Part shown: in pieces, positions 7,227-58,107 of the stretch
How the letters are laid out: each line of letters starts with the position of its first letter
Position numbering within the stretch: the stretch's first letter is position 1
The notes under the pieces: generated by a model
The model's input: the letters and a program-made list of their open reading frames with translations, nothing else
Told to the model about the DNA's origin: nothing
Databases searched by the model: none
Translations under genes and position numbers: made by a program
NCBI GenBank assembly: GCA_021769035.1
Contig: JAETTP010000004.1
Location: 10 to 64,009, forward strand
DNA: 64,000 bases
DNA from: Bacillota bacterium
Lineage (GTDB): Bacteria > Bacillota > Dehalobacteriia > UBA4068 > UBA4997
Direction of reading: 5' to 3'

Positions 7227-7697
7227 AAAAAGACCTCCTATGCTGTAATTTCAATAAATATTATGTAAATATTATACCATAGAAACAAGGTTATTTTATC
7301 TGATTTTACAAATTGCACTATGGTATTTGTTCGCAATGGGCTCTGCTTCCGCTTTGCAAGCGTCGCAATCGCCTTTGCTCACATTAACAGTTCAATCTGC
7401 GCTTTCAGCTTGATTTCACTGAGTACTCACATTATATCATAGGAACAAAGCAATTTCCTCTTAATTTATGTACCAAAAAGAGAGCTTCAGCAAAACAATC
7501 CAAAACATTATCCATTGAAATCAGACGTACACATAAAAAGTAACCGCCACTAGCTGCAATAGTGACGGTTTTTTTTTAAAAAATACTCACTAAGGCTAAC
7601 CGCTTATCTGTGGTGCCTTGTTGTTTAAATTATAACCTATTCCGGCTACTTTGTCAAGAAACCCTGCCTACTCATTTTACCAAAAAAAAGAGCGGTT

Positions 7698-11369: not shown

Positions 11370-11492
11370 GATTCATCCCTCCCAAATTAGCATAATGCTA
11401 TTTTATCTATTAATTATAGCACAGGGACTAAATAATTGCAACTCAATTTTATCATTTAATTTTTAGCTTACTTCAATTTAGCACCCAAAACC

Positions 11493-42031: not shown

Positions 42032-42579
42032 AACTCATATTTCTTTTAGAGGAGTTTTCAATGAAATATTTACTTGATGAGCTGTTGCCCAAAATACTTC
42101 CTGACGATGTGGAGTTTCAAACAATACCACACACAGGTAAAAGTGCACTAGAAAAATCTATACCACGTAAATTGCGTGCTTGGAATGAACCCAATGATAT
42201 TCGATTTGTAATTTTACACGATCAAGATAACAAAGATTGTCGACAATTAAAAAAGAAACTCTTAGAGCTTTGCAATGTAACAGACCGACCTGTCCTCGTT
42301 AGAATTATCTGCCAAGAATTAGAATCCTGGTACTTTGGTGATATGAATGCTGTTGCACAAGCCTATGATAAACCTAATTTACGAAACATATCTAAAAAGA
42401 AAAACTATCGAGTTCCTGACAATATTCAATCACCAAAGGCAGAGTTACTTAAACTAATACCCAATCATCAACAAATTAGCGGCGCAAAAAAAATTGCACC
42501 ACTAATGTCAATAGAGAACAATTCATCTGAAAGTTTTCAATATTTCATATCTGGTATTCATAAATTGATTGGCCGATAA
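42028..42579 (+). CDS. DUF4276-like small protein with a TOPRIM-like E...DxD signature (putative nuclease partner)
   Basis: Its ATG overlaps the ATPase stop codon (ATGA). It has an N-terminal acidic LLEEF and a VILHDQDNKD (DxD) motif about 60 residues later, with no other known domain. Same AT-rich composition as the ATPase gene. Confidence 0.6.
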   Translation: MKLIFLLEEFSMKYLLDELLPKILPDDVEFQTIPHTGKSALEKSIPRKLRAWNEPNDIRFVILHDQDNKDCRQLKKKLLELCNVTDRPVLVRIICQELESWYFGDMNAVAQAYDKPNLRNISKKKNYRVPDNIQSPKAELLKLIPNHQQISGAKKIAPLMSIENNSSESFQYFISGIHKLIGR

Positions 42580-45503: not shown

Positions 45504-45548
45504 GTAGCGTCTGGAATTAATCCGACGCTACTTTTTTATTTTTTTTGC
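45504..45548 (+). terminator. Rho-independent terminator (GTAGCGTC-loop-GACGCTAC followed by T6)
   Basis: Perfect 8-bp stem followed by TTTTTTATTTTTTTT. Confidence 0.65.
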
Positions 45549-45557
45549 CAAAAGAGC

Positions 45558-45586
45558 TTGACAAGTACACACGATATGTGTATAAT
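45558..45586 (+). promoter_or_regulatory. Consensus sigma-70 promoter (TTGACA, 17 nt spacer, TGTG-TATAAT extended -10)
   Basis: Exact consensus hexamers with 17-nt spacing. An AAAGGAGGT RBS follows at 45602. Confidence 0.7.
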
Positions 45587-45617
45587 GTAAGTATGAATTG
45601 AAAAGGAGGTCACACCA

Positions 45618-45974
45618 ATGGAAAAAGAACGTATCAATATTTCTATCGATCAGGAGGTTCGTGAAATGCTCAAAGAATTGGCCGAGGCCCGGCACACCAC
45701 AGTTTCCCAGCTTATCACCGACTGGACTGTGGATAAGTACAAGGAAATGAAAGCCTGGGAGCGGCTGGACAACATCTTCTCCATCCAAGGGGAACTGGAT
45801 TTGGCAGTTGACGAATATCTGGAGCAAAATCCCCAGGCCGACCCGGCGGAGGTGCGGCGCAGCCCTGACCTGCTGGCGGCAATCCTTAACGGTTATCGGA
45901 GCAGAATGGAAACCGAGCTGCTGGAGCAAGGACTGCTGCCGGTGAACGACCCCGACAACCCCGTCTTTAACTAA
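45618..45974 (+). CDS. Hypothetical protein with a possible N-terminal ribbon-helix-helix (CopG-like) fold
   Basis: MEKERINISIDQEVREMLKELAEARHTTVSQLI resembles an RHH beta-strand plus helix region. The rest is acidic and unassigned. Confidence 0.4.
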   Translation: MEKERINISIDQEVREMLKELAEARHTTVSQLITDWTVDKYKEMKAWERLDNIFSIQGELDLAVDEYLEQNPQADPAEVRRSPDLLAAILNGYRSRMETELLEQGLLPVNDPDNPVFN

Positions 45975-45997: not shown

Positions 45998-46034
45998 ACA
46001 GCGTCGGATTTATGATCCGGCGCTGTTTTGCTAT
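45998..46034. terminator. Bidirectional terminator hairpin between the convergent genes 45618..45974 and permease P1
   Basis: ACAGCGTCGGAT-TTATG-ATCCGGCGCTGT (12-bp stem with one mismatch) followed by TTTTG. Confidence 0.5.
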
Positions 46035-46047
46035 CTAATAAGCCTCT

Positions 46048-47274
46048 TTAATCATAGCGCAAAGCCTCAATCGGCTCCAGTTTGGCCGCCTGCCGGGCCG
46101 GATAAGTGCCGGAAAGCACGCCCACCAGCACGGAAACCGCCACCGCCGCCAAACTGGGCAAAATCGCGCCAATTAAATAATCAAACGAAACTTCCATAAC
46201 CAAAATCAGCAGGAAAAAGGCCCCAAAACCGACTATAACCCCAAGCCCGCCGCCGATTAAGCCGATGATAACCGCCTCCAGGGCAAACTGCCGCTGAATA
46301 TCCCGCCTGGTGGCCCCAAACGCCTTGCGGACGCCGATTTCCCTGGTGCGGGCCTGCACGCCGGCCAGCATTACGCTCATAATGCCCGCGCCGCCGATAA
46401 GCAGCACAATCACGGCCAAAAACACCTGCTGCACCGCGTCGCCGATAATAAAACCTTTTATCATTTCCGATGATTCCCCTAAGGAGATAATTGTCAGCCA
46501 CCAAACGGTTCTCCGCTCCCGGCCGGTTCGTTCCTTTAGCATATCCATCACCAGCGTTTGCGCTTCATCCATTTTATCTTTTCCATTAGCATATACATAA
46601 TATTTATCCTCATATATACCGGCATTATAAGGATCAAGCCTATCTCCAAGCATTTTTCTGGCGTTGGTGTAAGGAATATAAACCTCGCTATTCAGGGTTC
46701 GGGACTTTGGCACCTCGGCCAAAACCCCAACAACGGTGTAATTCTCGCCCCAAACTTTGATTTCCTTACCCAAAGCGTCGCCGCCCAGCAAATCGTTAGC
46801 AATGCTGTTGCCTATCACGCAAACTTTGCGTTCCCTATCTATATCCAAATCGGCAAAAAAACGCCCCTCCTGCAAATGCAGCACCGGCCGCATTTTAAGA
46901 TAGCTGTCGCCCACTCCATAAACCTGCGCTTCGTCAGCAGCCGCATCGCCATATCTCACGCCGCCCGGCAGGTCAAACTCAGAATACGGCGATATGGCGC
47001 TGATAACCTCTGGATTATCCGCCGCAACCTGCTCCATATCCTCCGGCGTAATCCTTACCGGATAATCCACGTCAGTGCTGACCCACATATCCAAAAGGCT
47101 GTCGGCATATTCCTCCTTTTCATTCTGAACGAACATCAAGGAAACATTGCAGCAGCTCAAAGCAAGGATAAAACCGGCAATGCCGATAAACATCCCCAAA
47201 ACAGCTTGCAGGCAACGCCACTTGTTGGCGGCCAAATTGCGCACCGCATTTTGCAGACTTTGTTTAATATCCAC
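46048..47274 (-). CDS. FtsX/MacB-type ABC transporter permease, paralog 1 of 7
   Basis: N-terminal TM helix, large extracytoplasmic MacB-like domain, three C-terminal TM helices and a GVRKAFGA motif. GTG start preceded by GGGAGG. Confidence 0.85.
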   Translation of the reverse strand: MDIKQSLQNAVRNLAANKWRCLQAVLGMFIGIAGFILALSCCNVSLMFVQNEKEEYADSLLDMWVSTDVDYPVRITPEDMEQVAADNPEVISAISPYSEFDLPGGVRYGDAAADEAQVYGVGDSYLKMRPVLHLQEGRFFADLDIDRERKVCVIGNSIANDLLGGDALGKEIKVWGENYTVVGVLAEVPKSRTLNSEVYIPYTNARKMLGDRLDPYNAGIYEDKYYVYANGKDKMDEAQTLVMDMLKERTGRERRTVWWLTIISLGESSEMIKGFIIGDAVQQVFLAVIVLLIGGAGIMSVMLAGVQARTREIGVRKAFGATRRDIQRQFALEAVIIGLIGGGLGVIVGFGAFFLLILVMEVSFDYLIGAILPSLAAVAVSVLVGVLSGTYPARQAAKLEPIEALRYD

Positions 47275-47298
47275 CTAAAAAACCTCCCTTAAACACAG

Positions 47299-48504
47299 TT
47301 AATCGTAACGCAAAGCGTCAATCGGCTCCAGCCGGGCCGCCCTGCCCGCCGGCAAAAAGCCGAAAATTATCCCCAGACCGACGGAAACGCTGAAAGAAAG
47401 CAACACGGAATCCCCGGCCAACGCAAACGGCAGCTTCATAAAATGACAGGCCAAAAAGCTGGCCGCCACCCCCAGGCCCACGCCAAACAAGCCGCCCGTG
47501 GCGCTGGTGCAGGCCGCCTCAATTATAAATTGCAGCCGAATATCCCGCCGCCTGGCCCCAAAGGATTTGCGCACGCCAATTTCCTTAGTGCGCTCCGATA
47601 CGGAAATGGACATAATATTCATAATCCCCACGCCGCCCACCAGCAGGGCAATGCCGGCAATCATTGAAAGCACGGAAAGCATACTTCCTTGCATAGCAAT
47701 CATCATTTCCATCCGTTCCTTTTGGCTGGTGATTTGAAAGTAATCGTCCTTTTCATAACATTCCAGCAGCAGTTCCTCAATCGCCGCCACCGCGGCCTCG
47801 GAACATTCTCTAGTGCGAGAATTTAAAGTGTAGCTGCTCACAAAAGGCGTTTCCCCCAGCTGCAAAACGTTGGTGTAAGGGATATAAACCACATCATCCA
47901 CGCCGCCGGCCGCGTTTTGCAAATCAATATCGGAAAGCTCGTCCTGCGGGCCCAGCACGCCCACCACGGTGTAATTCCGCCCGCGGATTTTAAGGCTGCT
48001 GCCCAAGGCCCGGCCGCCCATAATCACCCGGTTCACGTAATGCCCCACCACGCAAACCTGGGCCTGCCGCTCCACGTCCATATACTGCAAAAACCGCCCC
48101 TCCGTCAGGTCCAACAGCTGCGTTTGCAGATAAGCCTCGCTCACGCCATAAATCTTCGTCCCACTGTGGCGCTCGTTGCCGTATTTAACGCCGCCGCCCA
48201 GCCCCACGCTGGGGCTTAAATCGCAGAGCAAATCCGGCTTGCTGCTCACCAACTCATACATATCCTCCACACTAATTTGGCGGGTGGAATCCCGATTGTA
48301 CAGACTGACGCTGATCATATTGGCCCCCAGCTTATCGAAACGGGCCTCCACCTTGGCCACCGTGCCCCGGCCGATAGTCATAATCGCAATAACCGCCGCC
48401 ACGCCGATAATTATGCCCAGCATAGTCAGCAGAGAGCGCACCTTGCGCGCCAGCAGGCTTTTAATGGCCAGCTTAAAACCTTGGCTAATATTCATTTGGT
48501 GCAC
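47299..48504 (-). CDS. FtsX/MacB-type ABC transporter permease, paralog 2
   Basis: Same architecture as paralog 1. C-terminal ...AARLEPIDALRYD. Confidence 0.85.
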   Translation of the reverse strand: MHQMNISQGFKLAIKSLLARKVRSLLTMLGIIIGVAAVIAIMTIGRGTVAKVEARFDKLGANMISVSLYNRDSTRQISVEDMYELVSSKPDLLCDLSPSVGLGGGVKYGNERHSGTKIYGVSEAYLQTQLLDLTEGRFLQYMDVERQAQVCVVGHYVNRVIMGGRALGSSLKIRGRNYTVVGVLGPQDELSDIDLQNAAGGVDDVVYIPYTNVLQLGETPFVSSYTLNSRTRECSEAAVAAIEELLLECYEKDDYFQITSQKERMEMMIAMQGSMLSVLSMIAGIALLVGGVGIMNIMSISVSERTKEIGVRKSFGARRRDIRLQFIIEAACTSATGGLFGVGLGVAASFLACHFMKLPFALAGDSVLLSFSVSVGLGIIFGFLPAGRAARLEPIDALRYD

Positions 48505-48530
48505 CTCCTGACTTATTTAATTAATCGCTG

Positions 48531-49772
48531 TCAGCCCTCGCTGATAGCCGCCACCGGCTCCAGCTTGGCCGCCTTGCCTGCCGGATAAGTGCCGAATATC
48601 ATACCCACGCCAACCGAAATCAAAGCTGTTATAACCAAGGGTAAAAAAGGAACCCCAAGCACATCTAACGGCAAATGTAAAACATCACAAACAATGTAAA
48701 TAATTGGCACGGCTAAAAAAATACCAACCACACAGCCAAGCATACTAATACAAACACTTTCACACAAAAATTGCTTTTGTATATCCTTGTTTGTTGCGCC
48801 GAATGCCTTACGAATACCAATCTCCTTGGTGCGCTCCTCAACCAAAGCTATCATCATATTCATAATACCGTTGCCACCCACCAGCAATATCAAAAAGGCA
48901 AACAAGGCAAAAGGAGCAAACACCATTGACAAACCTTGGCTCATCTGTTTTCCCTGCCAATCTAACGATGTTATATTGGCCGCGTCGGTTTCATTCAGAC
49001 AACTGTCCAACATAGACCTGATTGCAGCATGGGCTTCAACCGTATTTTCTGCGCTTGTAACGCCAACAAAATATGAGCTGAAGTAAGACCCAATGCCGCT
49101 AAATGTTTCTGGACGAAAATCTGCTCCAGTTATTTTTAATGCACAAGTGGACGGAAGCAAAATTGTATCATTCCAATTTTCAGCGTCTAAATCAATTTCT
49201 GCCAACACACCAATAACAGAAAAATTAGTTCCGGCTATTTTTAGGCTTTGCCCTAAAGCATTACCACCCATAATTTTATTTGCAATATTACTGCCTATAA
49301 CACACACATTCTGCTCGCGTTCAATATCCATATTTTGTAAAAACCGGCCTTGTTTAACCTGCAAAACATGGATAATTTTATAAAAATCCTCATTAATCCC
49401 CTCAATATTTATATTGCTGTTATTATATAGCTTATTATCATACACAAAACCGTCAACATAATCAGATACATATATCATCGGGCTTACAGCGTAAATCAGA
49501 TCTGGATTTTCCTTAATCAAATTCTGCCAATCCTCGTCCGTTAGCGTATCACGTGAAAAGGTGTCCATTCTTTCAAAAACGCTCACCCATATCACACCCG
49601 AATTATAATTTGCAACCTGCATTTTAATTTGATTTAATAAGCCTTGGGCAACGCAAACCACAGTAAAAACAGATACTAAACCAATAACAAAAATTAATGT
49701 TGATTGCAGGGTTCGCATTTTGTTTTTTAATAAGCTTTGAAAAGATAAACGAAAAAGCTGCTTAATATCCAT
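48531..49772 (-). CDS. FtsX/MacB-type ABC transporter permease, paralog 3 (AT-rich body with a GC-rich 3-prime end)
   Basis: Same architecture. The body is roughly 40% GC, while the last 70 nt or so are identical to the 3-prime end of paralog 4. Confidence 0.85.
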   Translation of the reverse strand: MDIKQLFRLSFQSLLKNKMRTLQSTLIFVIGLVSVFTVVCVAQGLLNQIKMQVANYNSGVIWVSVFERMDTFSRDTLTDEDWQNLIKENPDLIYAVSPMIYVSDYVDGFVYDNKLYNNSNINIEGINEDFYKIIHVLQVKQGRFLQNMDIEREQNVCVIGSNIANKIMGGNALGQSLKIAGTNFSVIGVLAEIDLDAENWNDTILLPSTCALKITGADFRPETFSGIGSYFSSYFVGVTSAENTVEAHAAIRSMLDSCLNETDAANITSLDWQGKQMSQGLSMVFAPFALFAFLILLVGGNGIMNMMIALVEERTKEIGIRKAFGATNKDIQKQFLCESVCISMLGCVVGIFLAVPIIYIVCDVLHLPLDVLGVPFLPLVITALISVGVGMIFGTYPAGKAAKLEPVAAISEG

Positions 49773-49805
49773 AATTTCTATTCCTTTTTCCGATCTTAAT
49801 CGCTG

Positions 49806-51086
49806 TCAGCCCTCGCTGATAGCCGCCACCGGCTCCAGCTTGGCCGCCTTGCCTGCCGGATAAAGACCAAAAATTACGCCAACCAGCATTGCTGCAACCG
49901 CCGCCAGCAAAGCCGGCAACAGCAAAGACGGCAAATTCAACAAATCAGGGCTGAAAAGCAGCTGGCCGGCATAACCAATCGGCACGCTGCCCATAAAACG
50001 GCAAACCAGCCAACCGGCAGGCAGGCCCAACGCCACGCCCAGCAGCGCGCCCAGGCCGCTGGTGCAAACGGCCTCCAGCAAAAACTGCCGGCGGATTTCC
50101 CCAGCCGTGGCCCCAAAAGCCCGCCGGACGCCAATTTCCCGCTTGCGCTCCTGCACGGCGGCCAGCATCACGTTCATAATCCCAACGCCGCCCACCAGCA
50201 GCACAAACCCGGAAAGGCCAAGCAATTTGCCCACCAGACCAAAAACGCACTCCCGGTCATATTTTTGCGAGGTGCGATTGCTTAGGGAAAACAGCAGGGT
50301 GGTTTCCCCGTGCGGCCGGCCGCTGACCTCCGCCAGCAGCGCGCGCACTGTGTCGCGTCCATTGATGATGTTATCCGTGCTGTTCAGGTTCACGTAGTAA
50401 ATATCCAGATAAAATTCCTCGTTTTCCCGCAGCGGCACCAAAATTTCCCCGGTCAGCTGTTTGGCGCTGGTGTAAGGAATATAGGTGCGATAATTGCCCT
50501 CCTCCAAATCAGGCTTAATTTCGCCAAAAACACCGATTACCGTAAAATTCTGCCCGCAGATTTTCACCGTTTGGCCCAGGGCCTGCTCATAATCCTGACA
50601 GCCCAAAAGCTCCGCAGCCACCGCGCTGCCCACCACGCACACATTTTGGCGGCGGCTGACGTCCAGCGGCTGCAAAAAACGCCCCGCCGCCACCTGGCAG
50701 GCCGGCTTCATACTCAAAAACTGCTCGCTAACCCCTTGCACCGTGGCCTTTTCCAAGGTTTCCCCGTTATAGCGCAGGTTGGGCTCCTCCACAAAAACCA
50801 GGGGCGATACCGCCGTTATGTACTCGGAGCTTTCCACCAGCCCCTCCATATCCTCCACCGTCACCCGCGGCGATTTCTCTGCACTCACGTAAACGCCCAT
50901 ATACATCAGGCTGGGGCTGTAGGCGGAATAAAACTTGCCCACGCCTTGCAGCAAATTGCTGCCCATACATAAAATAACCACCGCAGCCGCCACGCCAATC
51001 ACCATTCCCAGCGTGGTTTGGGCAAAACGTAGCTTGTTGGCCCGCAAATTGCGCCAGGCCATCGACAAACCCTGCCGAACATCCAT
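49806..51086 (-). CDS. FtsX/MacB-type ABC transporter permease, paralog 4
   Basis: Start reassigned to the ATG at 51084-51086 (MDVRQG...), which has a GGAGGTG RBS and removes the overlap with paralog 5. Confidence 0.85.
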   Translation of the reverse strand: MDVRQGLSMAWRNLRANKLRFAQTTLGMVIGVAAAVVILCMGSNLLQGVGKFYSAYSPSLMYMGVYVSAEKSPRVTVEDMEGLVESSEYITAVSPLVFVEEPNLRYNGETLEKATVQGVSEQFLSMKPACQVAAGRFLQPLDVSRRQNVCVVGSAVAAELLGCQDYEQALGQTVKICGQNFTVIGVFGEIKPDLEEGNYRTYIPYTSAKQLTGEILVPLRENEEFYLDIYYVNLNSTDNIINGRDTVRALLAEVSGRPHGETTLLFSLSNRTSQKYDRECVFGLVGKLLGLSGFVLLVGGVGIMNVMLAAVQERKREIGVRRAFGATAGEIRRQFLLEAVCTSGLGALLGVALGLPAGWLVCRFMGSVPIGYAGQLLFSPDLLNLPSLLLPALLAAVAAMLVGVIFGLYPAGKAAKLEPVAAISEG

Positions 51087-51111
51087 AATTAACACCTCCA
51101 TAAATTTAAGC

Positions 51112-52383
51112 TCATAAACCCTCGTTGATAGCAACCACCGGCTCTATTTTGGCCGCCTGCCGGGCCGGATAGGTGCCGAATATCATACCCACGCCAACCG
51201 AAACGGCCAGGGCCAGCAGAATCGGCCAGGCACTCAAGGCAATATCCAAGTATGCCGTAGGATAAGTTACGCCCGTAGCGTCAAAACTTATACTATCAAA
51301 AAGCACCGGAACAGCAAAGCTGGCCACCTCGCCCAGAACAACGCCAACCACACCGCCAAGCAAGCTTGTAATTATCGCCTCTAACATAAACTGGCGCTGA
51401 ATATCCTTATTAGTAGCGCCAAATGCCTTGCGAATCCCAATCTCTTTGGTGCGCTCCCGTACACTGGCCAGCATTACGTTCATAATGCCCACGCCGCCAA
51501 CCAGCAAAACACCACTAGCCCCCAACATCAGGTTAAAACCCAAGGAATAAGTGCCGCCTTTACCGGCCTCATAAAAAAACAATTCGCTGGCGCAGGTTAA
51601 AAACCACTTATCAATATTAGCCTCCTCACCCACTATCGCCGACACCTCCTGCTCTACGGCCCTGCGGGCGTTGCCGATATTATCCACGCCGTTGGCAAAA
51701 AGCACAAAACGGTTTGAATAGTAATCGCCTAGATAACCCTTTCCTATCCTCTCACCGGTTATTTTAAGGGCGTTGGTATAAGGCAGATATATATGCTCTT
51801 CATTATTTGAGCGTCCTGATTTTTCCATTATGCCAACCACTGTACAATTTACACCCCAAATTTTCAGCGTTTTGCCCAAAGCGTCGCCGCCCATAAGCTC
51901 ATTGGCAATATCGCTGCTCACCACGCAAACGTTTTGTTCCCGGCGGCAATCCATATACTGGATAAAACGCCCCTCGGCCAGTTTTTCATTAGGCGTAGCG
52001 TTTAGATAATTTTCATTTACGCCAACAAAGATAGCCTCGTCAAAACATTTATCGCCATACCAGATATTGCCACCCAAAGTATGGTCATATACAAAAGGCG
52101 AAACCGCCACAATGGTCTCCGGATATTTGGCGGCAATTTCGTCCATATCCTCAATGGTTATCGGCCTGTTAAGCTCCAGTCTGGTAGCAATATACATATG
52201 CATAACGCTGAAACTTTCCGGGTTCCAAATCTCTTCCATCAGATTGAGTAATACTTGACAGATATTGCCGGTTGCCACAATCGCCGCCACGCCAATCATC
52301 ATTGCCAGCGTAGTCTGGGCAAAGCGCATTTTGTTGACGCACAAATTCCTGATTGCTGCAAAAAAGCTTTGTTTAATATCCAC
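51112..52383 (-). CDS. FtsX/MacB-type ABC transporter permease, paralog 5
   Basis: Same architecture. GTG start with an AAGGAGGG RBS. Confidence 0.85.
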   Translation of the reverse strand: MDIKQSFFAAIRNLCVNKMRFAQTTLAMMIGVAAIVATGNICQVLLNLMEEIWNPESFSVMHMYIATRLELNRPITIEDMDEIAAKYPETIVAVSPFVYDHTLGGNIWYGDKCFDEAIFVGVNENYLNATPNEKLAEGRFIQYMDCRREQNVCVVSSDIANELMGGDALGKTLKIWGVNCTVVGIMEKSGRSNNEEHIYLPYTNALKITGERIGKGYLGDYYSNRFVLFANGVDNIGNARRAVEQEVSAIVGEEANIDKWFLTCASELFFYEAGKGGTYSLGFNLMLGASGVLLVGGVGIMNVMLASVRERTKEIGIRKAFGATNKDIQRQFMLEAIITSLLGGVVGVVLGEVASFAVPVLFDSISFDATGVTYPTAYLDIALSAWPILLALAVSVGVGMIFGTYPARQAAKIEPVVAINEGL

Positions 52384-52418
52384 AAAACACCCTCCTTATT
52401 AACTTCTCTTAATCGCTA

Positions 52419-53648
52419 TCAGCTTTCGTTGATAGCCGCCACCGGCTCCAGCTTGGCCGCCTGCTGAGCCGGATAGGTGCCAAAGATTACGCCAACCGAC
52501 ACCGAAAGCCCCAAAGCCAGCAAAATCGGCCAGGCTGTTATGTGAATATCTAACTCAGACACAGGAAAACCAAAAACACTAAAGTCAAGCAGCCAAGGCG
52601 CGGCAAAGCTTAACATCACACCAAAAACCAGGCCTAAAAAACCGCCAAACAGGCTGGTTATCAAGGCCTCCAGCCTAAATTGCCAGTGGATATTTTTATT
52701 TGTCGCGCCAAAGGCCTTGCGTATGCCAATTTCTTTGGTGCGCACCTCCACGCTGGCTATCATCACATTCATAACGCCCACGCCGCCCAGCAGCAGCACA
52801 AGCAAAGCCAGCAGAAAATACTTGTAAACCTGACTGACGGCATAACCAATGACATCTTCCTTAACAAATTGATAACTTAAAAACGTCATAGACCAATTAT
52901 CCTTACCCAGCAGTTTATCTATCTCCTCCTGGATCAAATTACGCACGTTACCGATATTTTCCATACCGTTAGCCTTAACCTCAAAACGGTCAGCATAATA
53001 TTTATTTTCCTGATAACCGGTGCGAATAACATCGCCAACCATTTTGCGCGCGCAGGTATACGGCAGAAATATCAGCCCCGCTGTGTTATCGTCATCAACC
53101 CCCACCACCGTAAAATTATATCCGTCAATATTCAGGGTTTTACCCAAGGCATCGCCGCCCAGCAGTTTATCGGCAATGTCCGTGCCAACCACGCACACGT
53201 TTTGCTCCCGCCGGCAATCCATATACTGAATAAAACGGCCCTCCTTGAGCTTTACGCAGTGCATATCAGCATACTGTTCATTTACGCCAAAGTAATTGCC
53301 TTTTTTGTAAATTTTATCACCGTATCGCACATTACAATAGATTGAATCAGCAACAATATACGGTGAAACTCCTAAAATAATATCGGGGTTAGCTTCGGCA
53401 ATTTTTTCCAAATCCTCAATAGTCGCCCGTTTGTTTGAATCAACCCGGCTGCTGATATATATATTGTTATTGCTCATAATGTCCGGCGTCCAGGAAGTTT
53501 CCACCTGCTGAATCAACACCTGACAAGTATTGCCAAGAACGATAAACGCCGCCACGGCCACAATCAGAGCAAACATAGCCTGTATTGAGCGCCGCTTGTT
53601 GGCATACAAATTGCGCGCCGCATTCAAAAAACTCTGTTTTATATCCAC
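52419..53648 (-). CDS. FtsX/MacB-type ABC transporter permease, paralog 6
   Basis: Same architecture. Its 3-prime end and downstream intergenic region are identical to those of paralog 7. Confidence 0.85.
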   Translation of the reverse strand: MDIKQSFLNAARNLYANKRRSIQAMFALIVAVAAFIVLGNTCQVLIQQVETSWTPDIMSNNNIYISSRVDSNKRATIEDLEKIAEANPDIILGVSPYIVADSIYCNVRYGDKIYKKGNYFGVNEQYADMHCVKLKEGRFIQYMDCRREQNVCVVGTDIADKLLGGDALGKTLNIDGYNFTVVGVDDDNTAGLIFLPYTCARKMVGDVIRTGYQENKYYADRFEVKANGMENIGNVRNLIQEEIDKLLGKDNWSMTFLSYQFVKEDVIGYAVSQVYKYFLLALLVLLLGGVGVMNVMIASVEVRTKEIGIRKAFGATNKNIHWQFRLEALITSLFGGFLGLVFGVMLSFAAPWLLDFSVFGFPVSELDIHITAWPILLALGLSVSVGVIFGTYPAQQAAKLEPVAAINES

Positions 53649-53685
53649 AAAAAACGCCCTCCTTATTAACTTCTCTTAATCGCTA

Positions 53686-54912
53686 TCAGCTTTCGTTGAT
53701 AGCCGCCACCGGCTCCAGCTTGGCCGCCTGTTTGGCGGGATAAGTGCCGGAAAGCAGGCCGACCAGTATCGTAATCGCAAAGGCAGCCAACATCGGCCAA
53801 ACAGTACCTGTTATATAAGTTAAAGGCGAATGGCTTGTAAGAAAAATCCCAAGAATTATGCCAAAGCCAACTGCCACCCCCAGCAGGCCGCCAATCAAAC
53901 CGGTAATCACCGCCTCCAGCATAAACTGACGCTTAATATCATTGGCAGTGGCTCCAAAGGCTTTCCGAATGCCAATTTCCTTAGTGCGGGCCTGCACACT
54001 GGCCAGCATAACGTTCATAATGCCCACGCCGCCCACCAACAGCGCCACCACAGAAAACAGCAGGTACGTACACATAGTTTGATAAACATCTATTTTGGAC
54101 ATTTCCTCAAAATAGCGGTAAGAGGCTGAAATATAATACCAATCCCGGTTGATCTGCCCCAAACGCTCCGCCAGCATATCCGTCGCGGCCAACCGAGCGT
54201 TGGCGATATTTTCAACGCCATTAGCTTTAATATAATAGCTATCTACGTAAAATTCACCCTGCAAATCGTACCTTGGCGTGGTAACCTCACCCTGCACGCG
54301 CTTCATAATCGTATACGGCAGCATAATGCAGCGATTGTAATCCGCAGCGCCCATATCCAACACGCCAATCACCTTGTAATCCGCCCCCCAAAGGCGCAGC
54401 GTTTGGCCTAAAATTTCATTGTTATTATTATAATTTAACGCATAGCCAACCACGCACACCCTTTGCTCCCGGTCAATCTCCATAGGTTTAAAAAAACGTC
54501 CCGCAGCCAGCCGCAAACTGCTCATCGTGCCCAGATAATTTTCATCAACCCCAAAAACGTTGTACTCCGCAGCTTCTCCCGCGGCCCCTTTAAGGGACAC
54601 CGGCAGGCCGGAATTAATATGCGGGCTCACCGCCTTAATAAACTCCGGGTTATCCGCAGCCAGTTGGCGCATATCCTCAATGCCTACCCTTTTGGTGTTA
54701 TTTATATTTGTCATCACCATAAAGTGCATAGTGTCCGGGCTGTTATATTGCTTATAGACGAACTCCACCACGTCAAAGGTTGCCGGTATAATATTCAGCA
54801 TTACAATAACGCTTGCCGTCCCCATAACAATCCCCAACACCGCCTGCAAACAACGCCACTTGTTGGCAAATAAATTGCGCATAGCCGTCCTAAACGTCTG
54901 CTTAATATCCAC
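53686..54912 (-). CDS. FtsX/MacB-type ABC transporter permease, paralog 7
   Basis: Same architecture. GTG start, 32 nt downstream of the ATPase gene. Confidence 0.85.
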   Translation of the reverse strand: MDIKQTFRTAMRNLFANKWRCLQAVLGIVMGTASVIVMLNIIPATFDVVEFVYKQYNSPDTMHFMVMTNINNTKRVGIEDMRQLAADNPEFIKAVSPHINSGLPVSLKGAAGEAAEYNVFGVDENYLGTMSSLRLAAGRFFKPMEIDREQRVCVVGYALNYNNNNEILGQTLRLWGADYKVIGVLDMGAADYNRCIMLPYTIMKRVQGEVTTPRYDLQGEFYVDSYYIKANGVENIANARLAATDMLAERLGQINRDWYYISASYRYFEEMSKIDVYQTMCTYLLFSVVALLVGGVGIMNVMLASVQARTKEIGIRKAFGATANDIKRQFMLEAVITGLIGGLLGVAVGFGIILGIFLTSHSPLTYITGTVWPMLAAFAITILVGLLSGTYPAKQAAKLEPVAAINES

Positions 54913-54944
54913 AAACGATCACCAGCCCTTTCCCCAAACCGCGC

Positions 54945-55679
54945 TCAGCCCTCCGCCGCCACCACGGCCTCCGCGCCGTCGGCCGGCCCGTCGTAGACGA
55001 TTTTACCGTCCTCCAGCCGCACAATCCGCTGCGCCTGCCGGGCAATGGCATTGTCGTGCGTAATCAGCACCACGGTGCGCCCCTCAGCGTTCAGCTGCTG
55101 CAAATAGCCCAGCACCTCCCGGCCAGTTTGGCTGTCCAGCGCGCCGGTGGGCTCGTCCGCCAAAATCACCGCCGGCTCCCCGGCCAAAGCCCTGGCAATC
55201 GCCACCCGCTGCTGCTGGCCGCCGGAAAGCTGATTGGGCACGTTGGCCGCCTTGTCCGCCAACCCCACCTTTTCCAGAAGCTGCAAGGAGCGCTTGTGCC
55301 GCTCCCCAGCCGGCATACCGGCGTATAACATCGCCAACTCCACATTCTCGCAAAGGTTCAGCTTGGGTATCAGGTTATACTGCTGGAAAATGAAGCCCAG
55401 CGTTTTGTTGCGCAACTTAGCCTTAGCGTTATCGTCCATTGCCAAAACGTCCTCACCGGCCAGATGATAGCTGCCGGAGGTGGGCACGTCCAGGCAGCCG
55501 ATTATGTTCATGCAAGTGGATTTGCCGCTGCCGCTGGCCCCCACAATCGCCACAAACTCCCCCCGGCAGATTTCCAGCGTCACCCCGTCCAGGGCGTGCA
55601 CCGCAGTTTCCCCCGTTTGGTAAATCTTAAAAACCTCCTGCAATTTAATCAACGCTTCGCCATTTTTTACTTCACTCAT
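54945..55679 (-). CDS. ABC transporter ATP-binding protein (MacB/LolD-type nucleotide-binding domain)
   Basis: Walker [10 protein letters not shown], signature [15 protein letters not shown] and Walker [12 protein letters not shown]. Confidence 0.9.
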
Positions 55680-55702
55680 TTTAAAAGCCTCCTTTTGTAT
55701 TA

Positions 55703-57214
55703 TCAGCTGCCGCTCCCATTGGGCACGGCAATCTTTTCGCCCTCCCGAACGCCGGAGATGACCTCCACATAGTAATCGTCGTTCAGGCCCAGCTCCAGCT
55801 GCCGCCAGCAGTAGCCGGGCAAATCGCTGGCCTCGCCATTGCTGCCCTCGACCAGCAACATATTTCCCCGGCTGATTGCATTCATCGGCACCAGCAGCAC
55901 GTCCTCCGCCTGCTGCAAAACCACCTCGGCATTAATATTCATACCCGGCAGCAACGCGCCAAACTCATCTAAAGTTACGGTAATCGGGTAAGTGGTTACG
56001 CCGTTGCTGCTGCTGCCCTTAATGCTGATTTTGCTGACGCGGCCGGTAAACTCCTGGCCGTCCAGCGCGTCCGCCACCACCTGCACCGGCTGGCCCACCT
56101 GCATCAGGCCAATGTCCAGCTCGTCAACATTCATCACAAACTCCAATTTACTCATATCGTAAATAACCGCCATTTCACTGGCATTGTTGTTGCTGTCTAT
56201 GGTGTCGCCCTGGTTGAACTTTTTTTCAATCACGGTGCCGGCAATCGGCGATTTAATGCTGTAATCCTCCAGCGCCGCCCGGGCGTTTTCCAGCTCCAGC
56301 CGGGCCCGTTGCAGCTCGTTTTCCACGCTTTCATCACTCAGCCGCACCAACGCCTGCCCGGCCCGCACATTGTCGCCCTCGGCCACCAAAATTTCCGCCA
56401 CGTCGCCGCTGCTTTTGGCCAAAACCTGTTCGCTGTAGGCATATTCCAGCAGGCCGCTGCGCACGCCGGCAAAGCCGCCGGCCTCCGCCTGTGCCCAATC
56501 GCCCTCCTGCAAGCCGCCGGGATTGCTCAGGCTAATCGTCACCTTATGGGTAAGCGCGCCGGCGCTCACCTGCTCCACCGGGGAAACCTCCAGGATTTGC
56601 CCCTCAAGGCGCTCGCCCGTTTTTTCCACAATCACCGCCGCCGTCTGGCCGGCTTGCAGCTGCTGGGCCTCCTCCGTTTTGAAAGGGGCCTCCAGCAGCA
56701 TTTTTTCCCTATCACGCAGGTAAACAAGCTGTGTGCCAACGCTCACATTGTCGCCAACCGCGCAGTGGATTTTCACCACCTGCCCGTCCGCCGGGGCCGT
56801 CACGTTCAGCTTGGCCGCGTCCGCCTGGGCCTCCGCCAAATTCAGCTGGGCCAATGTGTAGTTATTTTGGGCCCAGCCCGCATCAATCTGATAGAGCAGC
56901 TGGCCGGCCTCAATCACATCGCCCTCGCTGAAAGGGGCGCTTAAAACATCCCCCGTCACCAGGGCTTTCACGGTGTAGGAATTCACCGGCTGCACCGTGC
57001 CCACCCCCTCCAGGGTGGAGATAATGCTGCCCCGCTCCACCAGCTGATAGCGATAGGCCGGGGCCTCTCCCTGCTGCTCCGCCTGGCTTTGGCTGAAAAA
57101 CCACCAGCCGCCGGCTGCGGCCGCCGCCAGCAGCAGAATTAGCAGCCAAAGCCAGACTTTGCTGCCAGTTTTTGTGCCCACTGATCCCCGATCAGCGCTT
57201 TTGCCTGTAAACAT
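55703..57214 (-). CDS. HlyD/MacA-type periplasmic adaptor (membrane fusion protein)
   Basis: N-terminal TM anchor, coiled-coil, and lipoyl/barrel-like segments typical of membrane fusion proteins. Confidence 0.85.
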   Translation of the reverse strand: MFTGKSADRGSVGTKTGSKVWLWLLILLLAAAAAGGWWFFSQSQAEQQGEAPAYRYQLVERGSIISTLEGVGTVQPVNSYTVKALVTGDVLSAPFSEGDVIEAGQLLYQIDAGWAQNNYTLAQLNLAEAQADAAKLNVTAPADGQVVKIHCAVGDNVSVGTQLVYLRDREKMLLEAPFKTEEAQQLQAGQTAAVIVEKTGERLEGQILEVSPVEQVSAGALTHKVTISLSNPGGLQEGDWAQAEAGGFAGVRSGLLEYAYSEQVLAKSSGDVAEILVAEGDNVRAGQALVRLSDESVENELQRARLELENARAALEDYSIKSPIAGTVIEKKFNQGDTIDSNNNASEMAVIYDMSKLEFVMNVDELDIGLMQVGQPVQVVADALDGQEFTGRVSKISIKGSSSNGVTTYPITVTLDEFGALLPGMNINAEVVLQQAEDVLLVPMNAISRGNMLLVEGSNGEASDLPGYCWRQLELGLNDDYYVEVISGVREGEKIAVPNGSGS

Positions 57215-57231
57215 TTGTTTACACCTCCACT

Positions 57232-57939
57232 TTAATCAGATCCCCGCTCCTCCTGCTTGGCCTCTTTGCGCAGATTTTCCGGTTTTTCCGTGTTCTCCAA
57301 CAACTCGTCAATAGCCTGAAAATACATATGATCCAAGGTTGAGCTAAAATAAAGCAACGGTAAAAAAATACTCAATAAAACAAAAAACATTACAGTGTCC
57401 AAAATAAAGCTTTCAAATAGCAGAACCGCACCGATAAACAGCAAAAAACGCCCTTTGTTCAGATAGATAATCCCGCCAAGCGCCACCGCTATTATCAAAA
57501 TAGCCAGCAAAACTAAGTGGGTCGACATCTCATAATAACCATCCAGCAGGTGTTCGTTCAGGTTTTTTAACACATTGAGGTTAAAAAAGCCGGCGATAAG
57601 TATAGCCAGAACCGTAAGGCTCAAACCACGAGAAAGCCAGCGGGTTTCCCTAATCTCCCGGATTTTTTCAATCAGCTGCATTGTTTTCAGCAGCTGCGCG
57701 TCCGCCTCCCGTTTATATTCCTCCTCCGCAAAGCGGTCCCCAGCCATCAGCTCATTAACGCTGACGCCCAGCACCTCCGCCAGGCTGGGGATAATCGCCA
57801 GCTCCGGCATATAATTGCCGTTTTCCCAACGGGAAACCGTTTTGTTGGTAACGCCCAGCATCTCCCCCAGCTGGGCCTGCGTCCAGCCCTTTTGCTTGCG
57901 CAACTCCGCCACAAATTTACCAATCTTAACCTGATCCAT
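57232..57939 (-). CDS. Membrane-anchored XRE-family HTH regulator (BcrR-like architecture)
   Basis: N-terminal HTH_3 (KGWTQAQLGEMLGVTNKTVSRWENG) followed by three or four predicted TM helices. It is the first gene of the transporter operon. Confidence 0.8.
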   Translation of the reverse strand: MDQVKIGKFVAELRKQKGWTQAQLGEMLGVTNKTVSRWENGNYMPELAIIPSLAEVLGVSVNELMAGDRFAEEEYKREADAQLLKTMQLIEKIREIRETRWLSRGLSLTVLAILIAGFFNLNVLKNLNEHLLDGYYEMSTHLVLLAILIIAVALGGIIYLNKGRFLLFIGAVLLFESFILDTVMFFVLLSIFLPLLYFSSTLDHMYFQAIDELLENTEKPENLRKEAKQEERGSD

Positions 57940-58107
57940 TACAACCTCCGTCTATTCTCTACTGATTATTATAGCAATAAAGGCCCAATTTGTATTCCCC
58001 GCAAAAAGCGAATTAGTCAATTTCGTCCTTTTTCTGCCTTTCAAAGATTACCCACAAACAGCGAATGCCCAGCTACAGGCGTTGTCATCTCTAATTGTCC
58101 CCAGGAA

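Follow-up and report, generated by a model that had tools for sequence, protein, structure and literature searches.

Seven MacB-type permease genes behind a single ATPase and adaptor: a strain-variable operon of a gut Firmicute

The minus strand at 46048-57939 of the window (the whole 64,000-nucleotide stretch of DNA that was analysed) contains, according to Pfam and the open reading frames, single genes for a membrane-anchored XRE regulator, an adaptor and an ATPase, together with seven intact, tightly packed permease genes. Judged from sequence comparison, the seven copies are ancient orthogroups kept under purifying selection, not recent in-situ duplicates, and strains differ in the array, a recombination hotspot whose breakpoints lie in the conserved gene ends. 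On balance, it seems probable that the shared ATPase and adaptor serve strain-variable specificity permeases directed against peptide toxins.

Operon organisation, encoded proteins and control region

The ten reading frames of the original prediction were all recovered in place, and the genes and the elements at both ends of the operon are as follows (TM, transmembrane).

58047..58065, minus strand: direct repeat 1 (TTCGCTGTTTGTGGGTAAT), putative XRE operator, conserved upstream of XRE orthologs
57994..58012, minus strand: direct repeat 2 (TTCGCTTTTTGCGGGGAAT), 53 nt from repeat 1, overlapping a weak -35 box AATACA (57991-57996)
57968..57973, minus strand: -10 box TATAAT of the probable operon promoter, conserved
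57232..57939, minus strand: XRE-family membrane-anchored regulator, 235 aa (Pfam HTH_3, E 9e-17; hydropathy)
55703..57214, minus strand: MacA/YknX-type membrane-fusion (adaptor) protein of 503 aa that has a TM helix at its N-terminus (Pfam HlyD_3 and HlyD_D23)
54945..55679, minus strand: MacB-type ABC ATPase, 244 aa (Pfam ABC_tran)
53686..54912, minus strand: permease P1 (type T1), 408 aa (MacB_PCD and FtsX; AlphaFold2 and Foldseek; L081 ortholog)
52419..53648, minus strand: permease P2 (type T2), 409 aa (MacB_PCD and FtsX), with 74-nt exact direct repeats on both sides
51112..52383, minus strand: permease P3 (type T3), 423 aa (MacB_PCD and FtsX; L082 ortholog)
49806..51086, minus strand: permease P4 (type T4), 426 aa, 58% GC (MacB_PCD and FtsX; L001, L081 and L002 orthologs)
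48531..49772, minus strand: permease P5 (type T5), 413 aa, 39% GC (MacB_PCD and FtsX), with 68-nt exact direct repeats on both sides
47299..48504, minus strand: permease P6 (type T6), of the canonical type, start probably at ATG 48495 (MacB_PCD and FtsX)
46048..47274, minus strand: permease P7 (type T7), 408 aa (MacB_PCD and FtsX), with a 3' tail that copies the T6-type tail
45998..46026, minus strand: stable hairpin at the operon end, a unique match (-21.2 kcal/mol, z = -4.1)

The domains MacB_PCD (E 1e-24 to 2e-37) and FtsX (E 1e-20 to 1e-23) were found by Pfam in all seven downstream frames, and because P1-P7 each cover a profile made from the seven end to end (positions 1/2-411), they carry no frameshift or truncation; a profile search found no permease beyond the seven within the 64-kb window. 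The predicted permease lengths of 401-426 aa hold with the P4 start at ATG 51086, which is supported by a GGAGG 8 nt upstream and by its alignment with the MDxxQ starts of the paralogs, and the intergenic gaps of 17, 23, 32, 37, 35, 25, 33, 26 and 24 nt bear out the expected range of 17-37 nt. The claim that the start codons are mostly GTG is right for P1, P2, P3, P7 and nominally P6, but P4 and P5 start with ATG, and so probably does P6, where the GGAG abuts GTG 48504, so that the true start is more likely ATG 48495 (398 aa). The GC content is strongly uneven, reaching 60% in the ATPase and adaptor genes against the 39% of P5 and 58% of P4.

A full-length profile of the permeases matches the solved MacB (E ~1e-60) and Spr0695 (1e-50), and a Foldseek search with the AlphaFold2 model of P1 (pLDDT 91.7) returned MacB 5gko and Spr0695 5xu1_M on top, with LolE, YtrF, YbbP and HrtB also among the best matches. 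The ATPase is matched best in the PDB by the MacB nucleotide-binding domain (NBD) 5lil and Spr0694 5xu1_A (both ~3e-70), while the adaptor scores 187 bits against the NCBIfam model RND_mfp (cutoff 95), matches MacA 4dk1 (4e-19) and Spr0693 5xu0, and has orthologs in related loci annotated with BSH_YknX and Beta-barrel_YknX.

In the regulator, the HTH occupies residues 11-64 and a hydrophobic region residues 101-203, and the motif MYFQAIDxLL is conserved in the C-terminal part. The hydropathy of residues 101-203 has three peaks, and since the third is 41 residues long and is read as two helices, about four TM helices are predicted. The protein is orthologous across the XRE-bearing loci (48-57% identity, with the HTH and linker conserved and the TM part divergent) and belongs to a small full-length family of ~30 clusters. 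The pair of direct repeats upstream of its gene is probably its operator: the pattern TTCGCTnTTnnnGGGnAAT occurs only twice in the 64-kb window, where 0.05 occurrences would be expected, the repeats are kept upstream of the orthologous XRE genes in L001, L002 and L096, and among 179 loci a match to the pattern was found in 14, in 13 of them directly upstream of an XRE gene. At the -10 box, GCTATAAT/GTTATAAT is invariant across the alignment of four XRE upstream regions, and to judge by where repeat 2 lies with respect to this box, the promoter may be activator-dependent. In the L081 lineage the upstream genes instead encode a protein with sigma-70 region 4 and one with DUF4367, which may be an ECF sigma / anti-sigma pair and likewise a sensor of envelope signals. 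At the other end of the operon, the hairpin is probably a bidirectional terminator common to the convergent gene.

Divergence, orthology and rarity of the permeases

The pairwise identity among the seven paralogs is 33-53%, with the lowest mean in the extracytoplasmic domain (ECD, 32%), followed by TM2 (35%), TM3-TM4 (40%) and the N-terminus with TM1 (42%), while it is highest, at 69%, in the cytoplasmic TM2-TM3 coupling loop and reaches 64% in the C-terminal tail. The expectation of divergent ECDs and of conserved C-terminal TM regions and C-termini is, accordingly, sustained for the ECD and the tail, but not for the TM helices (35-42%). Single permeases of unrelated loci have the same domain-identity profile, which makes the pattern a family-wide one and no property of this array. 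The ECDs are acidic (net charge -6 to -17), a weak hint at cationic ligands.

Reciprocal one-to-one orthologs of all seven permeases, 56-78% identical and in a different gene order, were found in a mouse-gut metagenome-assembled genome (MAG; L081/L082). The individual counterparts include those of P1 (L081 10001-11227, 62%), P2 (L081 8736-9986, 64%; L001 12227-13486, 59%), P3 (L082 9663-10928, 70%), P4 (L001 83%, L081 78%, L002 76%), P5 (L001 77%, L081 66%) and P7 (L081 4946-6166, 56%). In every ortholog pair dN/dS is ~0.04-0.25, the values being approximate with dS close to saturation, and the ECD evolves no faster than the remaining protein. The idea of a library of distinct ECDs fits these data, each of the seven types having its own ortholog elsewhere under purifying selection.

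Among relatives such an array is, as had been supposed, highly unusual: exactly one permease was present at 77 of the 80 ATPase-related loci, which come from species-representative genomes. Towards the single permease of these ordinary loci P6 is 40-53% identical and the other six ~30%; P6 falls inside the single-permease clade in the NJ tree, and T6 orthologs occur in all the ATPase-linked arrays that were covered from end to end. By these comparisons P6 is the ordinary cognate (canonical) permease of the ATPase, and P1-P5 with P7 fall in a small clade of ~70 protein clusters, sister to the canonical permeases; with the profile of these extra permeases, only ~70 clusters score above 420 bits, followed by a sharp fall to <=370 bits. 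The extra permeases appear to divide into at least nine types of ancient divergence, each maintained by purifying selection. An orphan locus was also observed, in which a T5-like permease is accompanied only by an XRE regulator.

The statement that seven is far beyond the known systems was too strong, since a cluster of ten MacB-domain ADOP paralogs has been published (PMC3914696). In 80 sampled MacB-family metagenome loci there were permease runs of two (10 loci), three (2 loci) and five (1 locus), and peat metagenome contigs hold runs of 3-5 MacB-type permeases. The peat arrays adjoin family-21 glycosyltransferases.

Recombination at the gene ends and strain variation

Two pairs of exact direct repeats, found by exact-run comparison, lie at the 3' ends of the permease genes.

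53657..53730, minus strand: 74-nt repeat, copy A (P1 3' tail and intergenic spacer), the longest exact run common to the P1 and P2 regions
52390..52463, minus strand: 74-nt repeat, copy B (P2 3' tail and intergenic spacer), also seen in the junction sequences
49796..49863, minus strand: 68-nt repeat, copy A (P4 3' tail and the first 10 nt of the spacer)
48521..48588, minus strand: 68-nt repeat, copy B (P5 3' tail and the first 10 nt of the spacer)

Despite the 74-nt exact shared run, the gene bodies of P1 and P2 are merely ~45-55% identical in nucleotides. Within a genome, the homogenised copies (T1, T2, T4 and T5 of the window) show 0-4 differences over the last 42 nt, while between genomes the orthologs differ at 7-13 positions; the 3' tails of T3 and T7 in the window differ more than the homogenised ones. 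The permease 3' tails, as read from these differences, evolve in concert inside each genome.

Whole cassettes vary between strains. L084 and L086 are 99.3% identical save for the exact loss of the T5 cassette, with the alignments overlapping by 90 nt in the repeated tail, and among the strains of the sister species the orthologous T5 cassette is present or absent on both allelic backgrounds. The allele replacements in the sister species (cassettes of 424/419 aa against 405/406 aa, and 424 against 412 aa) have one breakpoint ~90-115 nt after the start of the first gene and the other ~44-65 nt short of the last gene's end; all four combinations of the two polymorphisms were found, and the 419-aa cassette occurs beside either the 424-aa or the 412-aa one. 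A truncated FtsX-only remnant of 208-225 aa lies between the regulator and adaptor genes of the sister species. In the conspecific contig L180, 99.2-99.6% identical to the window, an eighth permease is inserted behind P7, with the left breakpoint in the P7 tail and the right one at the edge of the downstream hairpin. The number of permeases per array is 7 or 8 in this species and 4 or 5, with alternative alleles, in the sister species.

Proposed function, alternative explanations and related systems

The operon is probably a chromosomal envelope-defence system of the MacB / type VII ABC kind, with the YknXYZ / Spr0693-0695 layout, in a gut Peptococcaceae-like Firmicute. A single promoter upstream of the regulator gene probably drives the regulator, adaptor, ATPase and permease genes as one transcript. 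We infer both the role of the XRE regulator and the sharing of the ATPase and adaptor: because all the permeases keep the NBD-coupling loop and the C-terminal helix, each would dock on one ATPase dimer and use one adaptor, and the conservation of loop and tail is compatible with such sharing, but it is family-wide and not specific evidence for it. The differing ECDs and TM helices would give differing substrate specificities, and the substrates would be peptides active on the membrane or the cell wall (bacteriocins or antimicrobial peptides of the host, for instance), which mechanotransmission would drive off the membrane. Homologous recombination is anchored in the conserved 5' heads and, above all, the 3' tails of the genes, and through it cassettes are deleted, inserted and replaced, producing conspecific strains with different permease sets. 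Toxin, bacteriocin or biosynthetic genes adjoined none of the arrays examined, which leaves no direct pointer to the substrate.

It is also possible, but unlikely, that the permeases are obligate heteromers, either a constant T6 with a variable extra or fixed pairs, so that the array encodes a few composite machines and not seven specificities. LolCDE, a heterodimer of diverged permeases on one ATPase, is a precedent in the family; the constant presence of T6 agrees with such machines, and the co-retention of the seven types in two divergent genomes could equally fit a fixed multi-subunit set; strains of the sister species sometimes have the first two cassettes swapped jointly (424+419 against 405+406). 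However, single cassettes are also lost or swapped with the neighbours kept, as for T5 and the 419-aa cassette, the adjacency of types is not kept across the compared genomes, and the orphan T5-like permease does with an XRE regulator only. TM2, which lines the dimer interface in the solved MacB structures, is among the least conserved regions, which speaks against promiscuous pairing and still allows specific pairs.

Slightly less probable is the export of the cell's own envelope components or peptides (glycolipids, lipoproteins or secreted peptides, the first two as for DevBCA and Lol, respectively), with the paralogs handling different cargo. It is favoured by sub-threshold matches of the adaptor and ATPase to DevB/DevA and bacteriocin-export models, by an SLH-domain polysaccharide deacetylase gene as conserved upstream neighbour, and by the glycosyltransferases beside the peat arrays. 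Presence/absence and allele replacement at the strain level would, however, not be expected of a housekeeping exporter, the Firmicute arrays examined have no linked genes for cargo or biosynthesis, the membrane one-component sensor or the apparent ECF sigma / anti-sigma pair suggests an external stimulus, and all the NCBIfam Dev and Lol matches lie far under their cutoffs (lolCE models, ~46 bits against 362).

That redundant tandem duplicates are heading to pseudogenes is effectively refuted: the extra copies are lower in GC and GC3 than the core genes, and the sister species has its FtsX-only remnant, but no copy of the seven is decayed, each has an ortholog under purifying selection, and the divergence between the paralogs is far above that between orthologs. 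Least credible of all is an assembly artefact merging separate single-permease operons, for although the source assembly is of metagenome type with repeats inside the array, and several independent same-species short-read contigs end within the ATPase gene, the exact repeats are no longer than 68-74 nt, the XRE-adaptor-ATPase and P6-P7 junctions recur in independent Logan contigs, numerous independent MAGs and metagenomes hold multi-permease arrays with the same flanking genes, and merged complete operons would not leave one ATPase and one adaptor for seven permeases.

The preferred reading, specificity permeases on a shared ATPase and adaptor, has its closest counterparts in YknWXYZ of Bacillus and Spr0693-0694-0695 of S. 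pneumoniae, monoderm operons which likewise encode a separate MacB-type ATPase, a 4-TM permease with a MacB periplasmic-core domain, and an adaptor of the MacA/YknX type whose TM helix is N-terminal. They have one permease gene, whereas here there are seven, eight in a conspecific strain, with turnover by recombination. The ykn operon is under sigma-W control; the present operon has no YknW-like gene, and its regulator is a membrane-bound XRE protein. Gram-positive MacB-like pumps have been shown to protect against SDP, AS-48, LL-37 and bacitracin (PMC5985334). LolCDE, the only well-studied system in which one ATPase serves more than one type of permease, is similarly a type VII ABC system with diverged permease paralogs (two) on one ATPase dimer, but its two subunits are fixed and essential, and it is Gram-negative and has no such adaptor. 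The ADOP clusters, e.g., the ten paralogs of Psychroflexus torquis, which are reported to be highly translated and of unknown function (PMC3914696), are a comparable grouped expansion of permeases with the MacB periplasmic domain and demonstrate that large paralog clusters exist in the superfamily; ADOPs, however, are proteins of ~800 aa from other phyla that have two FtsX modules and are described as orphans, while here each permease is a single 4-TM module of ~400 aa, encoded after a dedicated ATPase and adaptor, with scores of 103-128 bits with the ADOP model (cutoff 622).

As to the mode of evolution, tandem immunity-gene arrays evolve through recombination between conserved 5' and 3' blocks (PMC9484751), and the esaG/tipC arrays of the Firmicute type VII secretion systems resemble the permease array in their non-identical paralogs with conserved ends, which strains lose, gain and replace; they encode small soluble or membrane immunity proteins with a known cognate toxin, unlike the ABC permeases here, which need a shared ATPase. 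For the regulator, the parallel is BcrR of the E. faecalis bacitracin-resistance system, a one-component membrane-bound protein that controls an ABC transporter for resistance to a peptide antibiotic, is encoded directly upstream of BcrAB and has no extracellular sensing domain (PMC3968067). The likeness lies in the architecture of an N-terminal HTH with multiple TM helices; BcrAB does not belong to the MacB type of transporter. Inverted repeats form the BcrR sites, in contrast to the direct operator-like repeats of the present operon.

Layout and regulation of the operon

On the minus strand of the window, ten closely packed ORFs with gaps of 17-37 nt are located at 46048-57939, and both the ORFs and their Pfam domains agree with the ten-gene layout of the original prediction, namely a regulator, an adaptor, a single ATPase and seven permeases, as follows.

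Features of the operon and its upstream region
57232-57939, minus strand: regulator, Pfam HTH_3
55703-57214, minus strand: adaptor, Pfam HlyD-family
54945-55679, minus strand: ATPase, Pfam ABC_tran
46048-54912, minus strand: seven permeases (P1-P7 in order), Pfam MacB_PCD and FtsX in each
58047-58065 and 57994-58012: two TTCGCTnTTnnnGGGnAAT repeats, 53 nt apart

The permeases are of 401-426 aa, with one module each and the ATPase adjacent, and the family profile is spanned end to end by all seven, so that neither truncation nor frameshift is present. The reassignment of the P4 start to the ATG at 51086 is correct, and the true start of P6 is probably the ATG at 48495. The ribosome-binding site that had been ascribed to every gene is recognisable as a Shine-Dalgarno sequence for most of them, but is weak at P1 and P5.

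The regulator contains HTH_3 at residues 11-64, while its C-terminal half is hydrophobic (residues 101-203) and fits about four TM helices with short loops. An N-terminal XRE-type HTH with several TM helices and no extracellular domain is the architecture of the BcrR-like regulators, and in this respect the protein is similar to BcrR, which senses bacitracin as a one-component transmembrane regulator (PMC3968067). The homolog search with the regulator returned no relative with a source name, and none of the curated families reached its cutoff. Orthologs of the XRE-TM protein of the window are encoded in both Peptococcaceae relatives (the sister species, L001, and a further relative, L002) and in an orphan locus (L096), and upstream of all four genes there are two direct repeats, TTCGCTnTTnnnGGGnAAT, the second of which overlaps a weak -35 and is followed by a conserved TATAAT. 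The repeat pattern is found nowhere else in the window (0.05 matches expected), and among the fetched loci that match it, 13 of 14 carry it upstream of an XRE gene. At the operon end, a hairpin is located at 45998-46026 (z = -4.1), and the scan for promoter and terminator consensus inside the array gave nothing over background. The whole set is probably one autoregulated transcript ending at this hairpin, since the gap between the regulator and the adaptor is 17 nt.

In the orphan module (L096 9300-11215, also L097), the XRE-TM regulator with the same upstream repeats is directly followed by one T5-like permease (the types T1-T7 denote the orthologs of P1-P7), with the ATPase and adaptor absent within 10 kb and a BlaR1/BlaI-like pair adjoining (Peptidase_M56, Penicillinase_R). 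In a database protein of 353 aa (P0151), the XRE and FtsX domains are located in one chain.

The locus lies in a conserved chromosomal neighbourhood with no obvious mobile element, flanked on one side by thiamine genes, RmuC and an SLH polysaccharide deacetylase, and on the other by MCP, FIST, AraC and a two-component system. The plus strand at 40817-42579 encodes an AAA_15/AAA_21 ATPase of 404 aa and a DUF4276 protein of 183 aa, which are hits to HEC-01, a candidate defence system in PADLOC (E 3e-163 and 9e-61), and are located where the GC content of the window is at its lowest (0.41). As the sister species (L084) lacks both genes in its syntenic FIST-AraC interval, they resemble an inserted defence islet. 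At 45528-45974, in the interval that separates the array from the MCP gene, there are two overlapping ORFs on opposite strands, of 133 aa (minus) and 118 aa (plus), neither with a Pfam match; the 118-aa version, convergent with the array, is called in the conspecific contig L180.

Family assignment and rarity of the array

The permease profile matches the solved MacB structures 5lil, 5gko and 5nik (E 1e-56 to 1e-60) and Spr0695 of S. pneumoniae (5xu1_M, E 1e-50) at full length, and the topology is that of the four-TM MacB permeases, with a large extracytoplasmic domain (ECD) between TM1 and TM2 and a C-terminal FtsX module, in agreement with hydropathy. The AlphaFold2 model of P1 (pLDDT 91.7) comprises, in order, an N-terminal helix, TM1 with a stalk (18-55), the ECD of about 210 residues (56-264), and TM2, a short coupling helix, TM3 and TM4 (265-397) before a C-terminal helix; its best Foldseek matches are MacB, Spr0695, LolE, YtrF, YbbP and HrtB, with TM-scores of 0.63-0.68 for MacB and Spr0695. 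The ATPase matches the MacB NBD and Spr0694 (both ~3e-70), and the adaptor matches MacA and Spr0693, with an RND_mfp score above the cutoff. Therefore, the operon is a Gram-positive MacAB/YknXYZ-like type VII ABC system. The Lol, ADOP, FtsX, DevB and DevA models all scored far under their curated cutoffs. In particular, an ADOP is a protein of ~800 aa with two FtsX modules and an orphan from the ATPase, whereas the window permeases are single modules with an adjacent ATPase and reach 103-128 bits against the cutoff of 622 of TIGR03434, with half of the model matched.

In the ATPase scan of species-representative genomes, a single permease followed the ATPase in 77 of the 80 loci; the exceptions were only the two closest relatives (Peptococcaceae MAGs, ATPase 89-91% identical) and a third locus, L003, which overlaps L001 on one contig. 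P6 is 40-53% identical to the single permeases of such ordinary loci and groups with them in the NJ tree, while the other six permeases (P1-P5 and P7, hereafter the extras) are ~30% identical to them. A profile of the extras retrieved ~70 protein clusters at 420-625 bits among 5.8 billion, followed by an abrupt fall to 370 bits or lower. The background census in metagenomes counted 80 unrelated MacB-family loci, with 67 runs of one permease, 10 of two, 2 of three and 1 of five, its motifs being so generic that only ~30%-identical family members were retrieved. Larger runs, of 3-5 single-module MacB-type permeases, in peat-soil metagenome contigs (five at L163 797-7309, four at L164 10001-15754) are followed by family-21 glycosyltransferase genes, with no ATPase or adaptor in view on the contigs, and are a different kind of multi-permease array from another lineage. 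The literature search found no earlier description of multi-permease MacB operons in Firmicutes. However, a cluster of ten ADOP paralogs, duplicated permeases with the MacB domain, has been published for a Bacteroidetes genome (PMC3914696). Thus, the claim that seven permeases are far beyond the known systems holds in that the array is rare and extreme for this architecture, but was overstated for the superfamily, where paralog clusters are known.

Age of the permease types and exchange of cassettes

The seven permeases are 33-53% identical among themselves, and a mouse-gut MAG (two independent assemblies, L081 and L082) contains reciprocal one-to-one orthologs of all of them, with identities of 62, 64, 70-71, 78, 66, 78 and 56% for P1-P7, respectively. 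Their order differs there from that of the window (T7-T5-T4-T2-T1, then the adaptor and ATPase, then T6-T3), and the XRE regulator is replaced upstream by a sigma-70 region 4 protein and a DUF4367 protein, which we read as an ECF sigma/anti-sigma pair. The Nei-Gojobori dN/dS of every ortholog pair is 0.04-0.25, an approximate range with dS near saturation, and the ECD, with the same reservation as to dS, evolves no faster than the remainder of the permease. Hence the types diverged long ago and have each been maintained separately, which rules out decaying redundancy; the decayed copies that were to count against the prediction are not found, all seven permeases being full length and their orthologs having these low ratios. 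Recent in-situ duplication was also rejected, as the paralogs are 33-53% identical versus 56-83% for the orthologs.

The gene ends follow the opposite pattern. The 3' tails of P1 and P2 with the following spacer share 74 identical nt, and those of P4 and P5 share 68 nt, unlike the gene bodies with a nucleotide identity of just ~45-55% (GC 39% in P5 versus 58% in P4). The homogenised tail is specific to each genome: over the final 42 nt, there are 0-4 differences between the homogenised paralogs of one genome (T1, T2, T4 and T5 in the window, where T3, T6 and T7 keep distinct tails), and 7-13 differences between orthologs across genomes. Paralogs alike and orthologs unlike, as judged by the sequences, is concerted evolution of the 3' tails within genomes. 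P7 itself was possibly inserted behind a once-terminal T6, as suggested by the resemblance of its tail and downstream sequence to those of the sister-species T6.

In every genome examined (window, L001, L081, L087, L099), the GC and GC3 of the extras are markedly under those of the adaptor, ATPase, T6 and T4; GC3 in the window is 0.37 in P5 versus 0.78 in the ATPase, and it is 0.26-0.40 in the variable cassettes of the sister species. This could be due to lower expression, foreign origin or frequent exchange. A recent horizontal acquisition of the low-GC P5 was rejected, as the T5 ortholog of the sister species is equally low (36% GC), the GC content of the extras is below that of the core genes in all three genomes, and T5 orthologs from different genomes resemble each other no more than the genes next to them do.

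Strains of the sister species, with flanks 99.3% identical, differ in their cassettes, which are named here by protein length in aa: the complete arrays found are 424-419-413-404-395, 424-419-404-395, 405-406-413-404-395 and 405-406-404-395, and a fifth haplotype starts with 412-419-413 before the contig ends. All four combinations of two polymorphisms are thus found. Where the 413-aa (T5) cassette is lost (L084 versus L086), the junction falls in a 90-nt overlap within the repeated tail, and where alleles are replaced (L084, L087 and L099 compared), the breakpoints lie 90-115 nt from the start of the first gene and 44-65 nt from the end of the last. In the species of the window, the Logan contig L180 (99.2-99.6% identical) contains one more permease after P7, the eighth, which represents a further type; one of its breakpoints is 25 nt ahead of the P7 stop codon, and the other coincides with the edge of the terminator hairpin. 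The array is a hotspot of recombination, and such strain-level turnover of cassettes is as expected of an arms-race locus.

Other genes also vary around the cassettes. A small ORF of ~45-52 aa (MLKNKKLIIVILLLIISGAFLWWFVSWRDNLKNF...), a predicted single-pass membrane peptide, separates the first cassette from the second in the sister species (L084 9848-9985, L087 ~11236-11390, L099 ~7390-7525) and is kept even where the flanking cassettes are swapped; it has no counterpart in the window. The interval between the regulator and the adaptor contains an FtsX-only truncated permease ORF of 208-225 aa in all sister-species strains (L001 7763-8437, L084 5588-6214), two intact permeases in L002 and nothing in the window. 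A few kb downstream of the sister-species array (L003 8522-11919; L089 from 20131), there is a second, ordinary operon of adaptor, ATPase and single permease, with the ATPase 74% identical to that of the window and the permease 52% identical to P6; no further permease outside the array was found anywhere in the 64-kb window. Independent short-read contigs of the window's species (L184, L186, L190, L191; also L185, L188) cover the regulator and adaptor, and four of them end at one point, 477 nt into the ATPase gene, which suggests that the assembly graph branches there, either because strains differ or because the genome contains another, nearly identical ATPase at a different site.

Readings of the array and comparison with known systems

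The best-supported reading is that one ATPase dimer and one adaptor would serve the whole permease set, whose members differ by type in their ECDs and TM helices; by mechanotransmission, they would expel, or protect the cell from, different peptides that act on the membrane or the wall, as the characterised Gram-positive relatives do for SDP, AS-48, LL-37 and bacitracin (PMC5985334). However, no toxin genes are linked to the arrays, and the conserved coupling loop is a generic family trait; together with the C-tail it was dropped as specific evidence for ATPase sharing, because single permeases of other loci have the same profile. The presence of all seven types in two lineages is also compatible with a fixed heteromeric machine of the LolCE kind with T6 as the constant subunit, which is considered unlikely, and export of endogenous envelope products by the permeases is less likely still. 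Decaying copies or an assembly artefact are effectively refuted. The window permeases are not members of LolCDE, as the lolCE equivalog TIGR02212 gives them 43-47 bits against a cutoff of 362.

The shared-engine reading may be tentatively extended to a modular type VII ABC machine, in which interchangeable permease cassettes, acting as homodimers or with T6 as a constant partner, would be attached to one ATPase-adaptor engine and diversified within species by end recombination, forming a strain-variable innate library against the bacteriocins of competitors or host peptides. The original observation stands, and its interpretation only in part.

MacB-family pumps have been studied with one permease, or with the fixed LolC/LolE pair, per ATPase. 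Here, at least nine permease types share a single ATPase, adaptor and regulator, each kept across genera, yet shuffled among strains of one gut species, and the locus is a natural experiment on substrate choice by the ECD and on the role of the adaptor in bacteria that have no outer membrane. Should the permeases be specificity modules, combining the common engine with one permease at a time would assign ECD sequences to substrates and tell whether heterodimers form, and the array would represent a new kind of polymorphism in resistance or immunity among strains of gut Firmicutes. The conserved putative operator repeats and the membrane-bound regulator provide a tractable sensor for a ligand search.

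Among the known systems, the rule of one (homodimer) or two (heterodimer) permease genes per ATPase in MacB/type VII transporters is broken by the seven of the window. In contrast to YknWXYZ, the window operon lacks an accessory YknW-like membrane protein, its sole other membrane protein being the XRE regulator, but extra small membrane ORFs are present in related arrays; in L002 (12198-12773), the T4 and T6 permeases are separated by a multi-TM protein of 191 aa, which has a promoter-like sequence of its own and may be an accessory membrane protein, possibly analogous to YknW. The mechanism of cassette exchange has already been described for the esaG and tipC immunity-gene arrays (PMC9484751), in which conserved 5'/3' blocks on divergent tandem paralogs correspond to the junction repeats of 68-74 nt in the window, and closely related strains differ by the loss, gain or replacement of copies, the breakpoints falling in the homology blocks, as in the sister species and between the window and L180. 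What is new here is a MacB/YknXYZ-type pump with an enlarged, anciently diversified and actively recombining permease cassette array. The modular machine proposed above, with interchangeable permease cassettes on one ATPase-adaptor engine, would be comparable to the S-components that share one ECF module, and would unite a transporter with the population genetics of an immunity array, a combination so far undescribed for MacB-family pumps.
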